A stretch of DNA of 64,000 bases. Origin: Candidatus Woesebacteria bacterium (GTDB taxonomy: Bacteria > Patescibacteriota > Microgenomatia > UBA8517). Each line of letters starts with the position of its first letter. Within the stretch, counting starts at the first letter, position 1. The translations under genes and the position numbers were made by a program. The notes beneath the pieces are model-generated. The model did not search any database. It worked only from the letters and a program-made list of their open reading frames with translations, and had not been told where the DNA came from. Location: assembly GCA_016432365.1 (NCBI GenBank), contig CP066686.1, forward strand, positions 64,355 through 128,354, read 5' to 3'. Positions 1,172-10,577 of this stretch are shown here, one piece after another.

Positions 1172-3034
1172 TTATTTCTGTCCGACTATCTTTTCAAATT
1201 CGTCTCTATCAAGAGTTTCTTTAACCAGCAAGGCTTCAGAAACTTTATCCAATATCTTCCTTTTTTCCTTCACCATCTTTACGGCAACTTTGTAACAAGA
1301 ATCAAGAATCTTTTTAACTTCGTTGTCTATTTTTTCCAAGAAGGCAGGCGAGTTTTTAGCAGATTCATACCATTCCATCTGGCCAAAATCCCCCATTCCT
1401 GTATCATCTCCAAAATTCATAGGCCCAAGTTCGCTCATTCCAAATTCAATCACCATTGCCCGGGCAACTTTGGTAGCTTGGGCTATATCATTGCTGGCGC
1501 CACTTGTCATCTCATTAAAAACAAGTTCTTCCGCGGCACGGCCGCCAAGCATTGCTGTAATCTGATTTAGAAGTCTCGATTTTGTTTCATGAGTTCTATC
1601 AGCGGCAGGGGGAATCAACGTATGCCCAAGACTCATCCCGCGCGCAACAATGGAGATTCTGTGGACGGGGTCCATTCCCTTTAGAAAGTTTGTAACGATT
1701 CCATGTCCCGCTTCGTGATAAGCGGTGATTTTCTTATCCTCGTCACTTTGAAGCCTTTTTTTGGCTGGCCCAAGTTTAACTTTTGTTGCACTCTCTTCGA
1801 TCTCCTCCATTGAGATCTCATCTTTGCCGTTTCGGGCTGCCCCAATCGCGGCTTCGTTAAGCATATTTTCCAAATCAGCTCCTGAAAATCCAACGGTGCG
1901 ATCGGCAACCCTACTCCAATCAACCTTTTTGGCAAACTTTTTTCCTTTGGCGTGGATCAAAAGAATTGCAAGCCGTCCCTCTTTGTCGGGCATGTCGAGT
2001 ACCACTCGTCTGTCGAACCTCCCCGGTCTTAAAAGTGCCGGGTCAAGCAAATCTCCACGGTTTGTGGCCGCCAAAACGACGACGTTATCGTTTGGAGTAA
2101 ACCCGTCCATCTCAACAAGAATTTGATTTAGCGTTTGTTCACGTTCATCGTGCCCGCCCATCATTCCACGGCCGCGAGACCTCCCGATTGCGTCAATTTC
2201 GTCTATAAAAATTATTGAAGGAGCGCTTGCCTTTGCCTGGCCAAAAAGATCACGAACACGGGAAGCTCCAACGCCAACCAACATCTCCATAAATTCCGAT
2301 CCGGCCATGCTAAAGAATGGTACCCCTGCTTCCCCTGCCACAGCTTTTGCCAAAAGTGTTTTACCAACTCCCGCAGGTCCAAAAAGAAGAGCACCCTTAG
2401 GAGTTCTTGCCCCCATCTTTCTGTATTTGGCAGGATATTTAAGAAAATCAACCAACTCTTCAAGCTCTTTTTTGGCTTCGTCCACACCGGCAACGTCTTT
2501 AAAAGTCGTATCTTGCTTGCCCTTGGCAAAAATCTTAGCACGGGATCTTCCAAAGGAAAAAATATCCTGCGCCCCCTTGCTTTGGGCTCTCATAATATAA
2601 TAAAAGAAAGCAGCCATAAGAATTATCGGTAGCACAATTCCTGCGATATCTGCCAGAGTTTTAGTCAGGGATTGATCTATAACAGCAAAATTTACACTTG
2701 TGGGATCTATCTCCGACTCTTTAAGAAGCTGACTAAACCCTTCCGAATCTTCTTTGGTGGACATCCTGACTGCTCCGTCTTTATAGGTAACAATCATTTT
2801 GTTTGCCTGAATCTGAACCTTATCTACTTTATTCGACTTAATATCATTTAGAAGTTGAGAGATCTCCACATTATTATTACTCCCGGCCATTTGAACTCCG
2901 GTTACGATAAGAGGGATTACAAAAAATATAACCAGAAGACCTAAAGCAACCGTCCAAAGATTGATTTTCAACTTGAATTGGACTTGCTTCTTTCCACTTG
3001 GGTTTTTGGTTTTGAGTAATTGTTTCGGATCCAT
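1172..3034 (-). CDS. ftsH: ATP-dependent zinc metalloprotease FtsH
   Basis: It has N-terminal TM helices, the AAA Walker [12 protein letters not shown] and the HEAGH zinc motif; length is 620 aa. Confidence 0.95.
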
Positions 3035-3055: not shown

Positions 3056-3448
3056 TTATCTTACTTTTGTCCCATCTGGAACTTTTTCCTGAAGATTAAA
3101 TAAAACCGTTGGGGTTTCTTCCTGAACTTTTTTATCTTCCGATGCATCCCCAGGGCAAGCCATAATCATCATCGCCTCGGAGAGTTCTTTATCGGGACCG
3201 ATTGGCCTGGGTTTTAAGTTAACTACAAATGGAAATTGTTTGCCGACAAGATCTTCGGGTTTGAAGAACTTCATGATACCGGAAAAGCAAATCCTAGTGG
3301 ATTTGCCGTCCGTAGCTTCAGCGAAGGAGGGCCCAAAATCTACTTCCAACCTAATCACCCAATGACTCCATTCGGGGACTTCGGCTTTGACAACGGTTCC
3401 AATCCTTATATCCACTGCTTCAAACTGGTCAAAGGTTATTTCGTCCAT
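3056..3448 (-). CDS. tRNA-binding protein (CsaA/Trbp111 EMAP-type OB-fold)
   Basis: The 130-aa protein shows FEAVDIRIGTVVKAE ... FPFVVNLKPRPIGP, the characteristic CsaA/MetRS C-terminal tRNA-binding motif. It sits directly downstream of trpS. Confidence 0.75.
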   Translation of the reverse strand: MDEITFDQFEAVDIRIGTVVKAEVPEWSHWVIRLEVDFGPSFAEATDGKSTRICFSGIMKFFKPEDLVGKQFPFVVNLKPRPIGPDKELSEAMMIMACPGDASEDKKVQEETPTVLFNLQEKVPDGTKVR

Positions 3449-3451
3449 ATT

Positions 3452-4957
3452 TTAATTTAATTTGTTTTTAATCCCAATTAGTTTATACGCTTCTTCGAGG
3501 GTTGTGTTTGCTATTGTACTCGCCTTTTTGGATCCTTCCAAAAGAATGTTTTTTACAAGTTGCAAGTCGCCTTCGAATTCTTTTCTTCGTGCTCTGGCTT
3601 CTGCAAAATATAATTTATGAGCCTCAACCAATTTCTCTTTAACTTCCACATCTCCAATCTCACCTGCTTTATATTTTGTTTTCATCTCTTCAACCATATC
3701 TTTATTTTGGTTAATTATATCGTGGTACATAAAAACGGTGTTTCCCTCGATCTTCCCGGGATCGGTCGCTCTTTTTCTGTTCGGGTCAGTATACGCGCTC
3801 ATTATTTGTTTTTTTATCACTTCATAGTCATCAAATATTCCAATCACATTTCCCAAACTTTTGCTCATTTTTCGTGTCCCGTCTGTACCAACTATTTTTC
3901 CTGTTTCTTTAGAAATCAGTGGTTCCGGCAAAGGAAATAAGTCATTAGAATATGTCTTATTAAAATTTCCAGCAATATCGCGGGTTAATTCTATATGCTG
4001 TCTTTGATCCTCCCCAACCGGAACTCCATATGGTTTATACAAAAGAATGTCGGCGGCCATCAAAATGGGATAATTAAAAAGGCCCATGTTTATAGATTCA
4101 ACTTCTGCGCCAAATTGAAGTTTGTCTTTAAATGCATGCATTCTCTGCATTTGGCCGAATGAAATATAATTTGCCAAAACCACAGCCAGTTGAGAGTGTG
4201 CAGGAACTTGTGATTGGCGGAAGAAAACACATTTTTCCGGATCAAGTCCCAATGCCAAATAATCCAAGACGACATTCGTAATATTGTCTTCTAGTTTTTC
4301 TCGATCCTTTACAGTTGTTAGAGCATGCAAATCAGCTACAAAATAATAAACTTCCAAATTTCTATTCTGTAACTCGATTTGGGGTTTAACTGCCCCAAAA
4401 TAATTACCAATATGTAAGGCATTACCACTTGGGGTAATACCAGATAAAATTCTTTTATTGTCAGATCTTTCCAAACTATCCAAAGCATCCCCCGCTGTGA
4501 TATCAACGACTACTGAATTGGGAATCTTAGTTAAGTCTGAAGATTTATATTTTGTTGTAACTAATAAACTTCCTGAACCACCATATACATATTCGTTTTC
4601 GAGTACTTGACGATCAATGAAGGTTTTAAATCCGGTCAGGTAATGCGCCGCGCCGGGCTCAAGGCCGGTTAATCGGGAAAACTCCTCTTTGCTGGCAATG
4701 TTTAATTTTTTAACACTCAATAATTTCTTTGTTTTTTCTAAATCTAACCTAGTATCTCCCCTACGAATTAGCGCAACGTAGTCGTCGTCTGCTTTCATTA
4801 AAAGTGTTGCAGAGCTAAGTTTTAGTGGCAACCCTAGGAAATTCATAACATCAGAAACCTCAACAAAAGCCGGGTGTTCAATAAATTCATGAAGGATATT
4901 TAGCTGATCCAACTGTTTACCATATTCTTCGACTGTTTGTTCAACTTTGTTTTTCAT
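3452..4957 (-). CDS. trpS: Tryptophanyl-tRNA synthetase with a ~170-aa N-terminal YbaK/ProX-like (deacylase-type) extension
   Basis: The C-terminal ~330 aa carry the class I motifs HIGN (HIGH), ADLHALT and KMSKS typical of TrpRS. The N-terminal region (LIRRGDTRLDLEKTKKLL...LTGLEPGAAHYLTG...YGGSGS) resembles the YbaK/ProX trans-editing fold. Confidence 0.85.
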   Translation of the reverse strand: MKNKVEQTVEEYGKQLDQLNILHEFIEHPAFVEVSDVMNFLGLPLKLSSATLLMKADDDYVALIRRGDTRLDLEKTKKLLSVKKLNIASKEEFSRLTGLEPGAAHYLTGFKTFIDRQVLENEYVYGGSGSLLVTTKYKSSDLTKIPNSVVVDITAGDALDSLERSDNKRILSGITPSGNALHIGNYFGAVKPQIELQNRNLEVYYFVADLHALTTVKDREKLEDNITNVVLDYLALGLDPEKCVFFRQSQVPAHSQLAVVLANYISFGQMQRMHAFKDKLQFGAEVESINMGLFNYPILMAADILLYKPYGVPVGEDQRQHIELTRDIAGNFNKTYSNDLFPLPEPLISKETGKIVGTDGTRKMSKSLGNVIGIFDDYEVIKKQIMSAYTDPNRKRATDPGKIEGNTVFMYHDIINQNKDMVEEMKTKYKAGEIGDVEVKEKLVEAHKLYFAEARARRKEFEGDLQLVKNILLEGSKKASTIANTTLEEAYKLIGIKNKLN

Positions 4958-4965
4958 TTTTTTAA

Positions 4966-6063
4966 TTATACCTGTTTTTTAATGTGTTGTTTGCCTTTCA
5001 AAAAATAAAACGGCGCATCTTCAATATCTCCCTCTAAATAAACGGCTGTATAAACTTCAGGGTGTGTGATTATTTCTCCAAAATACACGATATCTACTTT
5101 ATCTGACCCCAAAACGGGAACTCCGTGGTGTGGAAAAATCCTAGTCCTCTTATGAATGGGGTGAAACGAATAGGTATCATTTCTGGCAATGGTTGATACA
5201 TAAATATAATTCGGAAAAACAGACTTTATAATCTGATTATCTTTTTTCATTTTTGCAATTGCTAAATATTTCACCGCCAACTCAACTGAAGCCGATTTAA
5301 TATACTCAGCAAATTCCTTTTGGAAAACTGTAAGTTCCCGATTATTGAATCCAAATACCGTGAGCAAATCTTCATAATAAACGTCTTGGTTGATAGGAAG
5401 GCTTCTAGACATAACAGGTACCAATTTATTTATCTCTTCTGAAATTCGCGGGTTTGTCAAACTGGCAAACAAATACTCTTCTTCGTGTTTACAACCCATC
5501 TTAAATTCACTTTTATTATTTAATATATCTAAAAAATCAATGAATCTTATCGTCCCATTACCCCCAGTTTTTCCCAGAAAAGTTTGAATTCCAGCCTTAT
5601 ATTTATCAATCTCATAATCTGTCGATCCAAATAAATCTTTATATGTTTCACTTTCAGACAAAACTGTAAAATTTACACCCGGGGAATAAATTTGACGAAC
5701 AGTTTCGTTTATATCCAATAACCTTTGTAAAAAAGCAAGTTCCCCAAGATCCGGAGTTTTTCTTAATGTCTCTATCGGGTTATGACATTTAAATGGAAAT
5801 CCCTGAAAAACAAAATTTATCGGCTCGTTTTTCAAAACAAACTCTTTGATTTTTTGCTTACTCTCATTCTGAACCGTTGAGGCAACCAGGCCATCCCCCC
5901 TTCTAATGGTCGAGTCCATTAGTAAATCAAAAATCATATCTGACTTATCACCACCATCATTTTTGGATGGCACTAGAGTTCTCGGCTCCCTTAACAAGCC
6001 GTTTATATCCAAAATCTTCAAAGTATTTATGTTATTAGCTTTTAATAATTCGTTATATTCCAT
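4966..6063 (-). CDS. Hypothetical protein (365 aa) lying between trpS and tRNA-Trp
   Basis: This is a long ORF in an operon-like arrangement with no motif I can assign confidently. A weak resemblance to the Dit1/PvcA-type fold is unverified. Confidence 0.5.
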   Translation of the reverse strand: MEYNELLKANNINTLKILDINGLLREPRTLVPSKNDGGDKSDMIFDLLMDSTIRRGDGLVASTVQNESKQKIKEFVLKNEPINFVFQGFPFKCHNPIETLRKTPDLGELAFLQRLLDINETVRQIYSPGVNFTVLSESETYKDLFGSTDYEIDKYKAGIQTFLGKTGGNGTIRFIDFLDILNNKSEFKMGCKHEEEYLFASLTNPRISEEINKLVPVMSRSLPINQDVYYEDLLTVFGFNNRELTVFQKEFAEYIKSASVELAVKYLAIAKMKKDNQIIKSVFPNYIYVSTIARNDTYSFHPIHKRTRIFPHHGVPVLGSDKVDIVYFGEIITHPEVYTAVYLEGDIEDAPFYFLKGKQHIKKQV

Positions 6064-6139
6064 GCCAAACTATCCCCTGGACGCGCCGCATCTCAGAGGC
6101 TCCTTTCTGTAAACTGTTTTCAAATTCTTTACTCATAGG

Positions 6140-6212
6140 CAGGCGAGGCTGGAATCGAACCAGCGATTTCGCGTTTTGGAGACGCGTGTTCTACCAACTG
6201 AACTACTCGCCT
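6140..6212 (-). tRNA. tRNA-Trp (anticodon CCA)
   Basis: A cloverleaf was read by hand on the minus strand: acceptor AGGCGAG/CTCGCCT, D-arm GTTCAGTTGGTAGAAC, anticodon loop CUCCAAA, T-arm GCTGGTTCGATTCCAGC. The 3' CCA is not encoded. Confidence 0.85.
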
Positions 6213-6531
6213 ATTTTCCCAACAAAAAGGCCCTTGCAAACCAACGAAATAAATCGTTAATTCACAAGGGCCCATTTCTGGGGGTGCCACCCTATTGTTA
6301 TCCTCCTAAACAAAAAGTCCCCGGTCGAAACCGAGGAAAATCAAAATAAGAGGATCTTATTTCTGACATTCTCCGCTTGTGCGACAAATGTTGCGGTTCT
6401 TTTTACAGTTTCGCCTCTGTAGGTTATTTAGTCCTCTGCTAGTTTCAGCGGTTCCATCCCTCCGCCTCAAAGCATTTGTTAAACTGTCTATATACTATCA
6501 GATATAACTCGAGTATGTCAAGTTTTGAAAA

Positions 6532-6810
6532 TTATCCGGAAAACCTGACACTGGCCTTACATTCATCACATTTAACATATTTCTGAGACACCACGACACT
6601 ATTTATGCCCACACCCCAAGGATTTCTACTTCGAATATCAATAACTTGATCGGATTCAATCTTACTAAGTGGCAAGGATTTGCTGCAATTTTTTTCATGC
6701 ACAAAGTTTGCCACAACCTCTTCATACGAAGGGGGTAAATCCAACACGTTGGAAACAAATTTTTCCAAACGTGCACCCATATCTTTAAACCCTTTAAATC
6801 TTTCTTTCAT
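6532..6810 (-). CDS. Hypothetical small protein (92 aa)
   Basis: An ORF between the tRNAs; it has a C-terminal CxxC pair and is otherwise unassigned. Confidence 0.35.
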   Translation of the reverse strand: MKERFKGFKDMGARLEKFVSNVLDLPPSYEEVVANFVHEKNCSKSLPLSKIESDQVIDIRSRNPWGVGINSVVVSQKYVKCDECKASVRFSG

Positions 6811-6813
6811 TTT

Positions 6814-6890
6814 TGGTGTCAGGGGAGGGATTCGAACCCTCGACCTCAGCGTTATGATTGCCGTGCTCTAACCAACTGAGCTACCCTGAC
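6814..6890 (-). tRNA. tRNA with CAT anticodon (elongator Met or Ile2/lysidine); CCA encoded
   Basis: Minus-strand cloverleaf: acceptor GTCAGGG/CCCTGAC, D-arm GCTCAGTTGGTTAGAGC, anticodon loop AUCAUAA, T-arm GAGGGTTCGAATCCCTC, 3' ACCA. Confidence 0.85.
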
Positions 6891-7036
6891 TCGTCAGAGC
6901 TTGCTTCGCTTTTTGCATACCGTTTTGCAGTTCTTCCTCCCAAATTTGCAAAGCAAATTTGAAAAGAAGGGCCATCGATAAAAGCGAAGTTTCCGAGCAT
7001 CGGAAACGTAGCGTAAAGGTTTACGCTCCGAACTTG

Positions 7037-7106
7037 TTGCGGGGCTGGGAGTTGAACCCAGCCTGGAAGATTATGAGCCTTCCGTGCAGCCGTACACTAC
7101 CCCGCA
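7037..7106 (-). tRNA. Second CAT-anticodon tRNA with a non-canonical D/acceptor layout (fMet, Met or Ile2)
   Basis: On the minus strand it has the anticodon stem-loop GAAGG-CUCAUAA-UCUUC, T-arm CTGGGTTCAACTCCCAG and a GC-rich acceptor GCGGGG/CCCCGC. The D-stem is only 3 bp and there is no encoded CCA, so the exact ends are uncertain by 1-2 nt. Confidence 0.6.
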
Positions 7107-7305
7107 TGTTACGAACAAGGGTATTATACCTTAAAGAAGATGCTGTAGTCACGTTAATTTTTAATATGAAGATTTCTGTTCTAACTACTCTCAAACCTCT
7201 AATCTAAATTAGAAACTTGAGAGTGGTGCTGAGAGCTTGGCCTTTTTATAAAAATAAAGGTTTTGGCTCTCAGCACATTTTAGTTAATCGTCTTTGTTGT
7301 GTGAC

Positions 7306-8208
7306 CTAGCGCCAGTGTTTTTCATCAGGGTCGTGAGGCCGAATTACCGGAATCTCGGGTGCCGTCAAAGGCCGATCGGGGCGCCAATTCCAAGGCCGAT
7401 CCCACCAATTGGGAAAAGTCGGAACAGGTTCAGTCCAATCCCAATTGAAATTCCAGGTTTTGCGTAGTAAGGGCAAAAGATCCTCACGGAACTCGGTGCG
7501 CAGGAAAACCACGGGCTGTGAATCCATATTGTAACTCAAGCCTGTGCGAGCGTGGCTCATATGTTCTTCAGCGCCGGCGCCAATCGCAGCTCCACCCTTG
7601 GGTGTTGAGGAACCGCGTCTGCCAGAAGAAGAACCGTCGCGCAAATTGGCTTCAAATGTCAGAGGATCAAAACCTTTGACATAGGCGCCGCCCATACCAT
7701 CACCCTCATTCGTGGGTCGATCGTATTGGTGGCGGTTTCCTGCCACAGTGCGCTCGTAGATGCGGATTTGGCCGCGCCATTTTGTACTACCAAAAGCGTT
7801 CTCACCGATTGCCTCGCCATAACCCGACTTGGTAATGATTAGCGGTCGGCCGAGCTGGGCATTTGGATTCCCCAATTGATAAAAGAGCTGTTGGTCACCG
7901 GGAGCCAGTTCCCACATGTGGTCAACGTGACAAATATCAGGATCTGATTCACCATTATCCCACAAGTTCCGGGCCTCGAGAAAGGTCGGGTACGCACGCC
8001 AATTTGAGTTTCCATTCCAAATTCCGATACCAAGGCGCATACCCATTGTCACGGGAAGATAAATCTCATTACCCCATCTGAGCATGCGCAGAAGCACGCG
8101 GTTGCCCATGTCCTGAGCCCAAACAACAGTGTTCGAACCCGCCGGTCTGAAACTCTGGATCATTTCGAAGCTTTGCCGATTTCCGGTCGGCCAATTTTGA
8201 ATAGTCAT
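7306..8208 (-). CDS. Hypothetical protein, GC-rich, with a Trp-rich C-terminus (probably horizontally acquired)
   Basis: The track ORF is 7306..8301, but the start is probably the internal Met (MTIQNW...) at 8208, which is preceded by AAAGGAGAAAAAATG. Local GC is clearly higher than the flanks. The C-terminus reads NFNWDWTEPVPTFPNWWDRPWNWRPDRP. Confidence 0.55.
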   Translation of the reverse strand: MTIQNWPTGNRQSFEMIQSFRPAGSNTVVWAQDMGNRVLLRMLRWGNEIYLPVTMGMRLGIGIWNGNSNWRAYPTFLEARNLWDNGESDPDICHVDHMWELAPGDQQLFYQLGNPNAQLGRPLIITKSGYGEAIGENAFGSTKWRGQIRIYERTVAGNRHQYDRPTNEGDGMGGAYVKGFDPLTFEANLRDGSSSGRRGSSTPKGGAAIGAGAEEHMSHARTGLSYNMDSQPVVFLRTEFREDLLPLLRKTWNFNWDWTEPVPTFPNWWDRPWNWRPDRPLTAPEIPVIRPHDPDEKHWR

Positions 8209-8434
8209 TTTTTCTCCTTTTTGAATTGAACAAGCCGACAAAACACCACACTTAGATTTGTGGTTATCTAAGCACAAAAATCTCTGCCCAAACAGCCACA
8301 AATCTAACAGACGATTAAACTTTTAAAGAACAAAAGCATTTTACCAGAAATAGGTTTCGTGTCAACACTATGGGGCGAATAATTTCAGCCACCCCACACA
8401 TCTTACTCGCGGGGCGATTTGGCGGGGTTGGGTA

Positions 8435-8830
8435 TTATTTAGAAACAAATAGTTGTACCCATTTCTTCCAATTGGGGTCAGGCAGGGTTTCCAGGTCAAT
8501 TTCAATTTTGGGAGCAAGGCTCCTCAATACGTCCCCGTCGGGCAAAACGACTATCGTCTCCCCTGTTTTAACCAGTCCAAGCTTGTTTCTAATCTCTTTA
8601 TCAATAAACTCGGGCTTTTGCGCTTCCGCAACTTGGTTGGCCAGTACTTCATTGGCAGCTTTCATTTTTGCAATTTTTGCCTTTTCAGCTGCAATTTCCC
8701 CCCTAATTCTCTTAACTTTACCTATATTTTGAACCAACGAAAGGGTCAAAAGTACGACCAAAACCCAAATGGCGTACCCACCAAGCTTCTCAAACTTGAC
8801 TTTTAGCCTCTTGACAAAATCCTTTTTCAT
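8435..8830 (-). CDS. Septum-formation initiator family protein (FtsB/DivIC-like)
   Basis: It has an N-terminal TM helix, a coiled coil (KVKRIRGEIAAEKAKIAKMKAANEVLANQVAEA) and an LGLVKTGETIVVL motif. Confidence 0.6.
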   Translation of the reverse strand: MKKDFVKRLKVKFEKLGGYAIWVLVVLLTLSLVQNIGKVKRIRGEIAAEKAKIAKMKAANEVLANQVAEAQKPEFIDKEIRNKLGLVKTGETIVVLPDGDVLRSLAPKIEIDLETLPDPNWKKWVQLFVSK

Positions 8831-8902
8831 AGGTAAATTACATCCTGTAATGTTGACATTCTCAAAATATGAGGTATAATTAACCTCTCAGATACATTAT
8901 AT

Positions 8903-9766
8903 ATGACACAAGATACGATCAAAAATCTGCTTCCCAAATTCATAGAGTCCCTTAAATCTAAAGGGCGCTCCCCTGCTACCGTGCTTGCCTATAGAAGCGA
9001 CCTTGAACAGCTTACCGGCTATTTGTTAAAAAGAGAAAGAGCTACTCCAGATCAGGTAAAGCCTGAGGATTTAGACTCGTTCCGTGACCAACTTTTGGCT
9101 GACAAGTACACACCCAAATCCGTCAGCCGCAAACTAAATGCCGTAAAAACATTCTTTAGGTGGATGATTACAGAAAATGCTATTAGCTTTGATCCAAGCT
9201 CTTCGGTTGCCCACCCTAAGATTGACAATGCCTTACCCAAATTCCTTTCACAGCTTGAGTATAGGGCCCTTCGCGACGTTGTAAGAAACGATGTTAGAAT
9301 TGCTGCTATTGTCGAACTTATCCTACAAACAGGTCTTAGAATCTCTGAGGTCGCCAATCTTAAACTTGAACGTTCCAAAGATGGTTCGCTTAAGATTGAG
9401 TCTTATGCTACCCAGCCGGAAAGAACAGCTCCTTTGAACAAACCGGCTCAGGAGGTTCTTGATTCTTATATGAAGATAAGACCTAAATCGGATTCTCCCT
9501 ATGTTTTTATCAGCAAAAACGGTAAACCACTGGCAGTAAGAAACATCAGAGCGTCAATTTCCAGATATATGCAAAGGGCAGAACTTCCAAATTATTCTGT
9601 AAATGACTTAAGGACCACGTTTATGGTGGAAAATCTCAAAGCAGGGGTAGATATTGTCCTTCTTTCTCAAGTTTCCGGACACAAACGTCTTTCTACCACA
9701 GAAAGGTATTTGGAACTTGCACAAATAACCGAGCCTGGTAAAAAACAGGTCTTAGTTGAGCTGTAA
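8903..9766 (+). CDS. Tyrosine site-specific recombinase/integrase (XerC/XerD family)
   Basis: It has an N-terminal SAM-like core-binding domain (LAYRSDLEQLTGYL) and a C-terminal catalytic domain with GLRISEVANLKL, the HxxR region and RYLEL (catalytic Tyr). Confidence 0.85.
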   Translation: MTQDTIKNLLPKFIESLKSKGRSPATVLAYRSDLEQLTGYLLKRERATPDQVKPEDLDSFRDQLLADKYTPKSVSRKLNAVKTFFRWMITENAISFDPSSSVAHPKIDNALPKFLSQLEYRALRDVVRNDVRIAAIVELILQTGLRISEVANLKLERSKDGSLKIESYATQPERTAPLNKPAQEVLDSYMKIRPKSDSPYVFISKNGKPLAVRNIRASISRYMQRAELPNYSVNDLRTTFMVENLKAGVDIVLLSQVSGHKRLSTTERYLELAQITEPGKKQVLVEL

Positions 9767-10383: not shown

Positions 10384-10577
10384 TGGTCTCGGATGGAATC
10401 GAACCATCGTGTCGACTTTATGTTAGTAAATTCTGGTGGAGCCGGATGGAGTCGGACCATCGAATCGACTTTATAAGAGTCGTGGCTTACCGTTAACCTA
10501 CGGCTCCCCAGAATTCACTAACAGTCAAGGCAAAGCCTTGTCATAAGAGTCGTGTCCTACCATTGAACGACGAGACC
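10384..10577 (-). tRNA. Interrupted (split/intron-containing) tRNA whose ~120-nt insert carries the complete tRNA above
   Basis: The 5' half is at 10577..~10543 (acceptor GGTCTCG, D-arm GTTCAATGGTAGGAC, anticodon stem CGACU + CUUAU). The 3' half is at ~10420..10384 (AGUCG, T-arm GATGGTTCGATTCCATC, acceptor CGAGACC complementary to the 5' half, discriminator A). The insert has a CAAGGC-TTT-GCCTTG hairpin and 13-bp inverted repeats (TGTTAGTGAATTC / GAATTTACTAACA) flanking the inner tRNA. Confidence 0.5.
10434..10507 (-). tRNA. tRNA with UAU anticodon (tRNA-Ile reading AUA), complete, CCA encoded
   Basis: Minus-strand cloverleaf: acceptor GGAGCCG/CGGCTCC, D-arm GGTTAACGGTAAGCC, anticodon arm CGACU-CUUAUAA-AGUCG, T-arm GATGGTCCGACTCCATC (T-loop TCCGACT, non-canonical at position 55), 3' ACCA. 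Confidence 0.65.

Follow-up and report, generated by a model that had tools for sequence, protein, structure and literature searches.

Textbooks cite tryptophanyl-tRNA synthetase (TrpRS) and tyrosyl-tRNA synthetase (TyrRS) as synthetases that can do without an editing domain; the charging of D-amino acids is their one known weakness, which is covered elsewhere by a separate D-aminoacyl-tRNA deacylase (DTD). All characterised members of the INS superfamily, to which YbaK and ProX belong, use a conserved Lys and a GXXXP loop (PMC11286415), and a 2024 review describes the members apart from those linked to prolyl-tRNA synthetase (ProRS) as single-domain proteins (PMC11295145). Here we describe the trpS gene in a 64,000-nt stretch of a Candidatus Woesebacteria genome (contig CP066686.1, positions 64,355 to 128,354; hereafter, the window), which encodes a TrpRS preceded by a YbaK/ProX-fold domain. 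The fold and the idea of editing in cis are known; the synthetase partner and the active-site configuration are new. With slightly less than even confidence, we suggest that the module is a remodelled cis-proofreading deacylase that receives tRNATrp by its acylated 3' end, with D-Trp-tRNATrp as the leading candidate substrate.

The closest described systems share some but not all of these features. The INS domain of ProRS has the same fold, belongs to the same Pfam family (PF04073), is likewise carried in cis on an aminoacyl-tRNA synthetase and shares 'RGD' (R66-G67-D68) with the window protein, and in the ProXp-ala-ProRS proteins of Plasmodium and trypanosomatids the editing domain, too, sits at the N-terminus, connected through a linker. 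By contrast, the partner in the window is a class I TrpRS rather than a class II ProRS, the Lys and the GXXXP Pro are missing, a clade-specific R/K65 is present, and the substrate cannot be Ala- or Cys-tRNAPro. The free-standing proteins YbaK, ProXp-x/ProX, ProXp-ST1/ST2 and the uncharacterised ProXp-7/8/9 belong to the same superfamily, in which the best structural matches reached TM-scores of 0.76-0.82; a free-standing member of the Lys-less clade described below (P0129; P and L numbers are our own handles) resembles these trans-editing factors in domain organisation. The only other TrpRS that we found described with an editing-type appendage is the cytosolic enzyme of Plasmodium and other alveolates, which has an N-terminal AlaX-like domain (PMC3240968). 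That domain has the AlaX rather than the YbaK fold, its TrpRS is of eukaryotic type, and its origin is unrelated. DTD1, DTD2 and DTD3 offer a possible functional analogy only: their substrates, D-Tyr-, D-Trp- and D-Asp-tRNA, match the fusion partners TyrRS, TrpRS and aspartyl-tRNA synthetase (AspRS), whereas the folds are unrelated, the window domain having the YbaK fold and not belonging to the DTD family. Lastly, B3/4 domains, as in the beta subunit of phenylalanyl-tRNA synthetase (PheRS) and in stand-alone deacylases such as the canavanyl-tRNA deacylase CtdA, occur on sister TrpRSs (P0148, L038, L043 and L094) but not on the window protein.

The sole mention of these fusions that we found in the literature is one line of a figure legend in Mukai et al., with no fold assignment. 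Databases tag the Pfam domains automatically, and the protein is named simply 'tryptophan--tRNA ligase'.

Results

A YbaK/ProX-fold domain precedes a canonical bacterial TrpRS

The N-terminal domain matched PF04073 (tRNA_edit) with 54.8 bits against a gathering threshold of 25.5, aa 28-144 aligning with positions 1-122 of the 123-position profile. An AlphaFold2 (AF2) model of aa 1-166, built from an alignment of 28 homologous N-terminal domains, had a predicted local distance difference test score (pLDDT) of 93.5 and a predicted TM-score (pTM) of 0.87. Foldseek comparison of this domain with the PDB returned 37 matches at E<1e-3, dominated by YbaK, ProX and ProRS-INS structures or by structural-genomics and design entries of that fold; the exceptions were 9qzk (SadB) and 3mem, larger multidomain proteins annotated otherwise. 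The top match was ProX of T. thermophilus (2z0k/2cx5; E ~6e-12, TMq 0.80-0.82); the leading matches, which also included APE2540, Atu3699 and the YbaK proteins of H. influenzae and E. coli (1dbu/2dxa), together spanned TMq values of 0.76-0.82 and E values of 1e-10 to 6e-12. By sequence, the best PDB match was a ProRS INS domain (5znj, E 1.6e-5). No AlaX or tRNA_SAD match was obtained for the window protein in Pfam.

The protein is 100% identical to an NCBI tryptophan--tRNA ligase entry from a 'Candidatus Woesebacteria' metagenome-assembled genome (MAG). Beyond the N-terminal domain and the linker, it is a canonical TrpRS. It matched the NCBIfam equivalog TIGR00233 (trpS) with 326.7 bits (cut-off 176.75), aa 167-496 aligning with positions 2-328 of the 328-position profile, and PF00579, the class I W/Y catalytic domain, spanned aa 168-451. 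HIGN, KMSKS and AADILLY were invariant across the TrpRS family examined, the Asp of AADILLY serving in indole recognition. An altered amino-acid pocket in the fused enzymes was considered and rejected: no core column separated fused from unfused proteins, the best (0.74) being linker position 168. The window also encodes a cognate tRNA, a tRNA-Trp(CCA) that conforms to the G73 identity rule for bacterial-type tRNATrp (PMC5370408). The window TrpRS has not a single Trp residue, N-terminal domain included, and the same is true of 62 of the 64 fused relatives and of all 55 unfused ones, which echoes a remark by Mukai et al. (2017) on Trp-free TrpRSs in bacteria of the Candidate Phyla Radiation (CPR). 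We found neither a second TrpRS nor a further YbaK-like domain in the 64-kb window.

These results agree largely with a preliminary description of the DNA, which had proposed a YbaK/ProX-like module in front of a canonical TrpRS, had called such a fusion unusual and had recommended an AlphaFold model. The PF04073 score, the pLDDT of the domain model, Foldseek TM-scores of ~0.8 and the TIGR00233 match confirmed the architecture, and the model returned a confident YbaK/ProX fold, a result far outside what chance would produce. The HIGN, ADLHALT and KMSKS motifs lay where the description had placed them, and the 2024 review bears out that the fusion is unusual. A mis-called start, which the description had named as a way in which the fusion could prove false, is next to impossible, as is a sequencing error that joined two genes. 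We found nothing in favour of such an artefact of annotation or assembly. The reading frame is unbroken and has no internal Met close to where the core starts, only 8 nt separate the ATG from the end of the upstream gene, and in 58 fusions M1 is conserved and the N-terminal domain aligns throughout. In addition, many metagenomes and MAGs contain fused homologues, at least 64 independent ones in all, and ~17 GTDB species representatives are among the carriers. The artefact was therefore rejected.

A short linker joins the two domains (Table 1). The full-length model had a pLDDT of 84.6 and a pTM of 0.62, with linker blocks at 72 and 65. Because both domains folded well whereas the overall pTM was low and the linker weaker, the N-terminal domain is predicted to be flexibly tethered rather than docked. 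The start of the TrpRS core runs straight into the first strand and HIGN (aa 169-185); together with the 14-residue linker, this geometry would place the N-terminal domain near the acceptor-end site.

Table 1. Coordinates of the features in the window and of related genes and domain architectures in other loci
Feature	Location	Strand	Remarks
trpS open reading frame (ORF), complete	3452..4957	(-)	501 aa, ATG start; YbaK/ProX-fold domain, linker and bacterial TrpRS core
YbaK/ProX-fold (INS-superfamily) domain	4502..4957	(-)	aa 1-152; PF04073, AF2, Foldseek
Ala50-Thr51	4805..4810	(-)	aligned with superfamily 'K-T' (H. influenzae YbaK K46-T47); lysine absent
Arg65-Arg66-Gly67-Asp68 motif	4754..4765	(-)	on the strand opposite A50 in the predicted hairpin
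Loop G98-L-E-P-G102-A-A-H105-Y106	4640..4666	(-)	GXXXP-loop equivalent
Linker	4460..4501	(-)	aa 153-166, 14 residues, ITAGDALDSLERSD; lower model confidence
TrpRS core, canonical bacterial	3452..4459	(-)	aa 167-501; TIGR00233
HIGN	4403-4414	(-)	aa 182-185
ADLHALT	4316-4336	(-)	by translation
AADILLY, Trp-pocket segment	4037-4057	(-)	aa 301-307
KMSKS	3857-3871	(-)	aa 363-367
tRNA-binding OB-fold gene, Trbp111/CsaA/MetRS-C-terminal-like	3056..3448	(-)	3 nt past trpS; PF01588, 29.3 bits
ftsH	1172..3034	(-)	member of the conserved trpS - tRNA_bind - ftsH - 5'-3' exonuclease synteny
Isonitrile-synthase-family gene (DIT1/PvcA, PF05141)	4966..6063	(-)	365 aa; ends 8 nt before trpS
tRNA-Trp	6138..6212	(-)	CCA anticodon, discriminator G73, 3' CCA not encoded; 74 nt upstream of the PvcA-like gene
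PvcA-like genes in relatives	L032 2853-3956; L035 1078-2418; L091-L094 4001-5100		
PF01177 racemase-family genes	L002 5318-5995; L003 263-967; L005 5252-5992; L017; L090		
TrpRS alone	related loci		
TrpRS-tRNA_bind	L082 3989-5365		in-frame, 459 aa
YbaK-TrpRS	window		
YbaK-TrpRS-tRNA_bind	L089 3992-5815		in-frame, 608 aa
YbaK-YbaK-TrpRS	P0062 and others		
B3/4-TrpRS	L094 5089-6810		
B3/4-YbaK-TrpRS	P0148; L038 3263-5542		
B3/4-YbaK-YbaK-TrpRS	L043 3233-6016		
TrpRS-YbaK	P0139		C-terminal module
YbaK-TyrRS, bacterial type	P0158, P0324-P0327 (L009 5001-6770)		five clusters; Lys-less clade
YbaK with archaeal-type TyrRS	P0176, P0183		Lys-bearing relatives
YbaK with AspRS	P0222, P0258		Lys-bearing relatives

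The active site of the module is non-canonical

The near-universal lysine of the superfamily, which contacts the C75-A76 phosphate, is K46 in H. influenzae YbaK, K279 in E. coli ProRS and K45 in Cc ProXp-ala. HMMER alignment of 'SSATLLM' in the window protein with 'SFKTLLV' in YbaK (1dbu) and 'iaKTmif' in the ProRS INS domain (5znj) put Ala50 at this position. Across the 58 fusions, column 50 was Ala in 35, Ser in 17, Pro in three and another residue in three, and Lys in none; Lys was absent too from both domains of the tandem proteins and from the TyrRS-fused domains. We drew 150 representatives from an exhaustive profile search with the N-terminal domain, which had yielded 6118 matches. The ~45 best-scoring representatives had no Lys, whereas lower-scoring free-standing proteins of ~155 aa kept it.

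In the same 150 representatives, R/K65 was present in only 1 of 81 proteins with K50 but in 31 of the 35 whose residue 50 is small. R/K65 is thus particular to the Lys-less clade, while R66 and D68 also occur in ProRS INS domains. DSSP assigned strands E48-56 and E59-66 to a hairpin with a two-residue turn in both AF2 models, so positions 50 and 65 are predicted to be cross-strand neighbours, and on these models R65 would take the lysine's place in space. The lysine binds and positions the C75-A76 phosphate, and the chemistry proceeds via the A76 2'-OH and water (PMC10164551); hydrolysis could therefore survive the loss of the lysine if R65 provides the cation.

The GXXXP loop is altered as well. 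The window protein retains G98 and G102, and the Pro is replaced by Tyr106, next to a His105 that is conserved in the subclade. GXXXP was intact in 25 of the 58 single-domain fusions, in all TyrRS fusions and in domain 2 of the tandem proteins; tandem domain 2 and free-standing P0129 keep it as GYVSP. The preliminary description had credited the module with the hallmarks of the trans-editing fold, which was not borne out, given Ala50 and Tyr106 in place of the Lys and the Pro. With these residues missing, homology alone cannot establish proofreading, which would require a remodelled active site. The domain had a mean identity of 42%, compared with at least 90% conservation at T51, R66, D68, K75, G98, G102, D115 and G127. 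Purifying selection is thus focused on the canonical elements of the pocket.

The loss of both hallmark residues in the window copy also fits the main alternative, possible but less likely, in which a catalytically dead YbaK fold is kept as an appendage binding the tRNA acceptor end or CCA, and either raises the affinity for tRNATrp or protects or hands off Trp-tRNATrp. The flexible tether agrees with such a role, as does the ease with which close relatives have lost the domain. This lineage, moreover, gathers tRNA-binding modules, a tRNA_bind gene being located immediately downstream of trpS in most loci and fused in frame in proteins of the L082 type and in L089, a triple fusion; CPR synthetases acquire OB-fold tRNA-binding domains (Mukai et al.); and the AlaX-like domain on the cytosolic TrpRS of Plasmodium provides a precedent (PMC3240968). 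However, conservation is centred on the pocket loops (G98, G102, G127, D115 and T51) and on the R65/R66/D68 strand, and a second editing fold, B3/4, co-occurs on the same TrpRSs. The covariation between the Lys and the neighbouring Arg likewise suggests the retention of a phosphate contact, although such a contact serves binding as well as catalysis.

Editing-type modules have been joined to TrpRS repeatedly

To the 120 best matches to the window protein, 58 proteins of 480-515 aa contributed the same two domains, six of 655-675 aa had two tandem YbaK-like domains before the TrpRS, and ~55 consisted of the TrpRS core only (~337 aa). A scan of GTDB species representatives by full-length alignment identified 80 loci of this TrpRS clade, of which ~17 were fused and ~63 unfused. 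The fused loci came from Woesebacteria, Dojkabacteria and Gottesmanbacteria, plus some labelled 'Patescibacteria' only, and the unfused ones from Pacebacteria, Collierbacteria and others. The survey of architectures in related lineages that had been advised at the outset thus yielded dozens of Microgenomates proteins with the same fusion, plus variants. Many MAGs with a Patescibacteria-type locus (L011, L012, L014, L025 and others) bear 'uncultured Pseudomonadales' or 'Gammaproteobacteria' titles; these labels probably reflect mislabelled taxonomy.

The window core was 89% and 84% identical to those of the fused proteins P0003 and P0002, 87.5% identical to that of unfused P0009, and only 73% identical to those of fused P0005 and P0035. 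Because fused and unfused cores are interleaved in this way, the module has been gained, lost or swapped repeatedly. At the P0009 locus, 5 nt separate trpS from the gene upstream, and no YbaK-like ORF lies in the vicinity. We rejected a split gene in the unfused relatives, as there was no YbaK-like ORF within +/-4 kb of trpS in ~63 loci. A recent separate acquisition of the N-terminal domain was unsupported as well, the GC content and the GC content at third codon positions (GC3) being alike in the domain and the core.

Domain scans of the profile-search matches and of the related loci revealed the architectures listed in Table 1. The B3/4-bearing TrpRS ORFs measured ~750-930 aa from stop to stop. 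Editing-type modules have been joined to TrpRS repeatedly and independently, as N-terminal, tandem and C-terminal YbaK-like domains and as B3/4 domains. In a nearest-neighbour analysis, the closest free-standing relatives differed between fusions, which are therefore independent events. The Lys-less clade also has a genuine free-standing member, P0129, encoded in a complete genome of 1.45 Mb. An ultra-small bacterial lineage has thus repeatedly attached editing-type folds, YbaK-like, sometimes doubled and sometimes with B3/4, to both TrpRS and TyrRS.

A candidate cis-proofreading module

The gene encodes the cell's bacterial-type TrpRS, with a flexibly tethered YbaK/ProX-fold module at the N-terminus, beside the catalytic Rossmann fold. 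The module belongs to a Patescibacteria-centred INS clade with a remodelled active site, in which the phosphate-gripping Lys has been swapped for the small Ala50, the cation presumably relocated to the cross-strand R65, and the pocket glycines G98, G102 and G127 retained together with T51 and D115. In the mechanism that we propose, the aminoacylated CCA end of tRNATrp would, after charging, pass to the module, where wrong products would be hydrolysed in cis, that is, post-transfer. Such a scheme presupposes a catalytically competent pocket, as we infer this one to be; the substrate would most plausibly be D-Trp-tRNATrp, with a Trp analogue as the alternative.

The case for D-Trp-tRNATrp is circumstantial: related domains are fused to TrpRS, TyrRS and AspRS, the synthetases of the classical DTD substrates. 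DTD1 acts on D-Tyr-, D-Trp- and D-Asp-tRNA (PMC1807948). We counted it in favour of proofreading that the same Lys-less clade occurs on bacterial TyrRS and that Lys-bearing cousins occur on archaeal-type TyrRS and AspRS. Given the conservation of the pocket, the repeated recruitment of two editing folds to TrpRS and the free-standing member in a complete genome, we favour a functional pocket that takes the acylated CCA end; P0129 fits an autonomous, trans-editing-like unit. A phmmer search with an approximate E. coli DTD query gave no match in the window or in ~90 related loci, a negative that carries little information because it covers only ~6% of the genome, and we found no literature linking DTD to CPR bacteria or Patescibacteria.

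Several observations weigh against cis-proofreading. We know of no need for editing in TrpRS. The Lys and the GXXXP Pro, which every characterised INS-superfamily deacylase uses, are both absent here (A50, and Y106 after H105), and the window copy could be the degenerate partner of a pair, since it resembles the Pro-less domain 1 of the tandem proteins. The TrpRS pocket is unchanged where the fusion is present, as the comparison of fused and unfused cores indicated. The domain is also dispensable over short distances, P0009 having a core 87.5% identical to that of the window and no YbaK-like gene nearby, and the full-length model did not dock the two domains confidently (pTM 0.62). Proofreading and tRNA handling, the two options raised in the preliminary description, thus both stand as leading explanations, neither of them proven.

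A broader and unlikely proposal is that the Lys-less YbaK clade is an unrecognised class of cis and trans proofreading factors for class Ic synthetases, most likely a D-Trp/D-Tyr-tRNA deacylase that stands in for DTD, uses R65 and is deployed modularly on TrpRS and TyrRS, sometimes in tandem or alongside a B3/4 domain. In that case, TrpRS and TyrRS, long seen as editing-free, would have acquired proofreading in ultra-small bacteria. If active, the module would add a new catalytic variant to a well-studied proofreading fold and bring cis-editing to class Ic synthetases, and it could illustrate how symbionts with reduced genomes maintain accurate translation on scavenged amino acids. If inactive, it would be a clean natural case of an editing fold re-used for tRNA handling.

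Gene neighbourhood of trpS

On the minus strand of the window, the genes follow one another in the order tRNA-Trp, PF05141 gene, trpS, tRNA_bind gene, ftsH and 5'-3' exonuclease, with successive gaps of 74, 8, 3 and 21 nt from tRNA-Trp to ftsH. The preliminary description had correctly placed a CsaA/Trbp111-like gene after trpS, but the 365-aa gene and tRNA-Trp, which it had put on the same side, precede trpS. It had also called the 365-aa protein unknown; the protein matches PF05141 (DIT1_PvcA) with 83 bits, is named 'L-tyrosine/L-tryptophan isonitrile synthase family protein' at NCBI and has a PvcA structure match. As for the 'Trp-decoding cluster' of that description, the pairing of trpS and tRNA_bind is conserved, whereas tRNA-Trp lies directly upstream in few loci and the isonitrile-synthase gene is linked in a subset of genomes.

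The order trpS - tRNA_bind - ftsH - exonuclease is common to fused and unfused relatives. NCBIfam matches of the tRNA_bind gene were sub-threshold; a tRNA_bind domain followed trpS, or formed part of its ORF, in 15 of 22 YbaK-fused loci and in 46 of 69 others. In L092, ftsH (6440-9080) contains an intein that carries a LAGLIDADG homing endonuclease (PF14890, PF14528).

Apart from the window, where the PvcA-like gene lies between the two, tRNA-Trp was found directly upstream of trpS only in L038 and L043. A 20-bp terminator-like hairpin with a T-run lies immediately upstream of tRNA-Trp in the window (6228-6273, minus strand). As this hairpin probably ends the preceding transcription unit, tRNA-Trp may head the trpS operon. 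No T-box, riboswitch or other leader RNA was detected in the operon at E<=0.1 or at gathering thresholds.

The PvcA-like protein is Trp-free and has ~50 homologues in total. In all seven contexts examined, its gene lay upstream of trpS: it was the immediate neighbour in six (the window, L032 and L091-L094), and a NIF3 gene separated the two in L035. The neighbouring TrpRS was YbaK-fused, B3/4-only (2/7) or unfused (2/7), and we rejected the idea that the gene is confined to YbaK-fused trpS. Together with the whole of trpS, the PvcA-like gene has a GC content of 0.34-0.38 and a GC3 of ~0.31-0.33, compared with GC contents of 0.44 for ftsH, 0.44 for tRNA_bind and 0.43 +/- 0.04 for the background. 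This shared low GC content suggests that the two genes move as a cassette within the conserved syntenic slot.

Characterised members of the PF05141 family, such as IsnA and PvcA, target the alpha-amine of Trp or Tyr. Such a neighbour evokes a second, very unlikely role for the module, namely that it clears tRNATrp or Trp-AMP of a Trp analogue made by the adjacent enzyme, such as alpha-isocyano or N-formyl tryptophan, and so protects the cell from its own pathway for a Trp-derived metabolite. The gap of 8 nt, the 7 of 7 contexts and the cassette-like GC content agree with it, and the NCBI family name and the PvcA structure match point to the same alpha-amine chemistry for the neighbouring enzyme. 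On the other hand, the linkage is to trpS generally, with two of the seven linked TrpRSs unfused and two carrying B3/4 only; 19 of 22 YbaK-TrpRS loci have no PvcA-like neighbour; and mischarging is doubtful, since an alpha-isocyano acid would lack the amine that TrpRS recognises. We found no literature tying the isonitrile-synthase family to TrpRS or to CPR bacteria.

In other loci, an Asp/Glu-racemase-family gene (PF01177) occupies the slot that the PvcA-like gene fills in the window, directly upstream of trpS, whether fused or not (Table 1). These neighbours could link to D-amino-acid metabolism.

In L004 (24-4926), which has the tandem-domain form, trpS directly follows a complete trpG-D-C-F-B-A operon, and in L070, with a single-domain fusion, trpB and trpA lie just upstream of trpS. 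CPR genomes are thought to be without amino-acid biosynthesis, and a trp operon beside trpS is unusual there. Taken with the loss of the tRNA-contacting hallmark lysine and with the ability of the YbaK pocket to bind aminoacyl moieties, the position of fused trpS directly after trp biosynthesis genes in these two loci would suit a module that senses amino acids and tunes TrpRS, or one that moonlights, in either case unrelated to the tRNA 3' end. We regard such a role as at least as improbable as the clearing of a Trp analogue. We know of no precedent for it in the YbaK superfamily, and the occurrence of the same clade on TyrRS and at both ends of TrpRS argues for a function common to the products of class Ic synthetases rather than for Trp sensing.

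Further genes upstream of the cluster were recorded in the window. On the minus strand (7306-8301), a 331-aa ORF located ~1 kb upstream of the cluster of tRNA-Trp and trpS encodes 17 Trp residues (5.1%, against ~0.8% in other genes) and ends in the tail 'WNFNWDWTEPVPTFPNWWDRPWNWRP'; it has no Pfam match, its GC content is 0.51 compared with 0.42 for the whole window, and it is perhaps not a genuine gene. Two tRNA-Met(CAT) genes are located at 6814-6890 and 7036-7106. A tRNA-Ile gene with the anticodon TAT (UAU) lies at 10434-10507 on the minus strand and is kept in this neighbourhood in L002 (2537-2608) and L005 (2791-2862).

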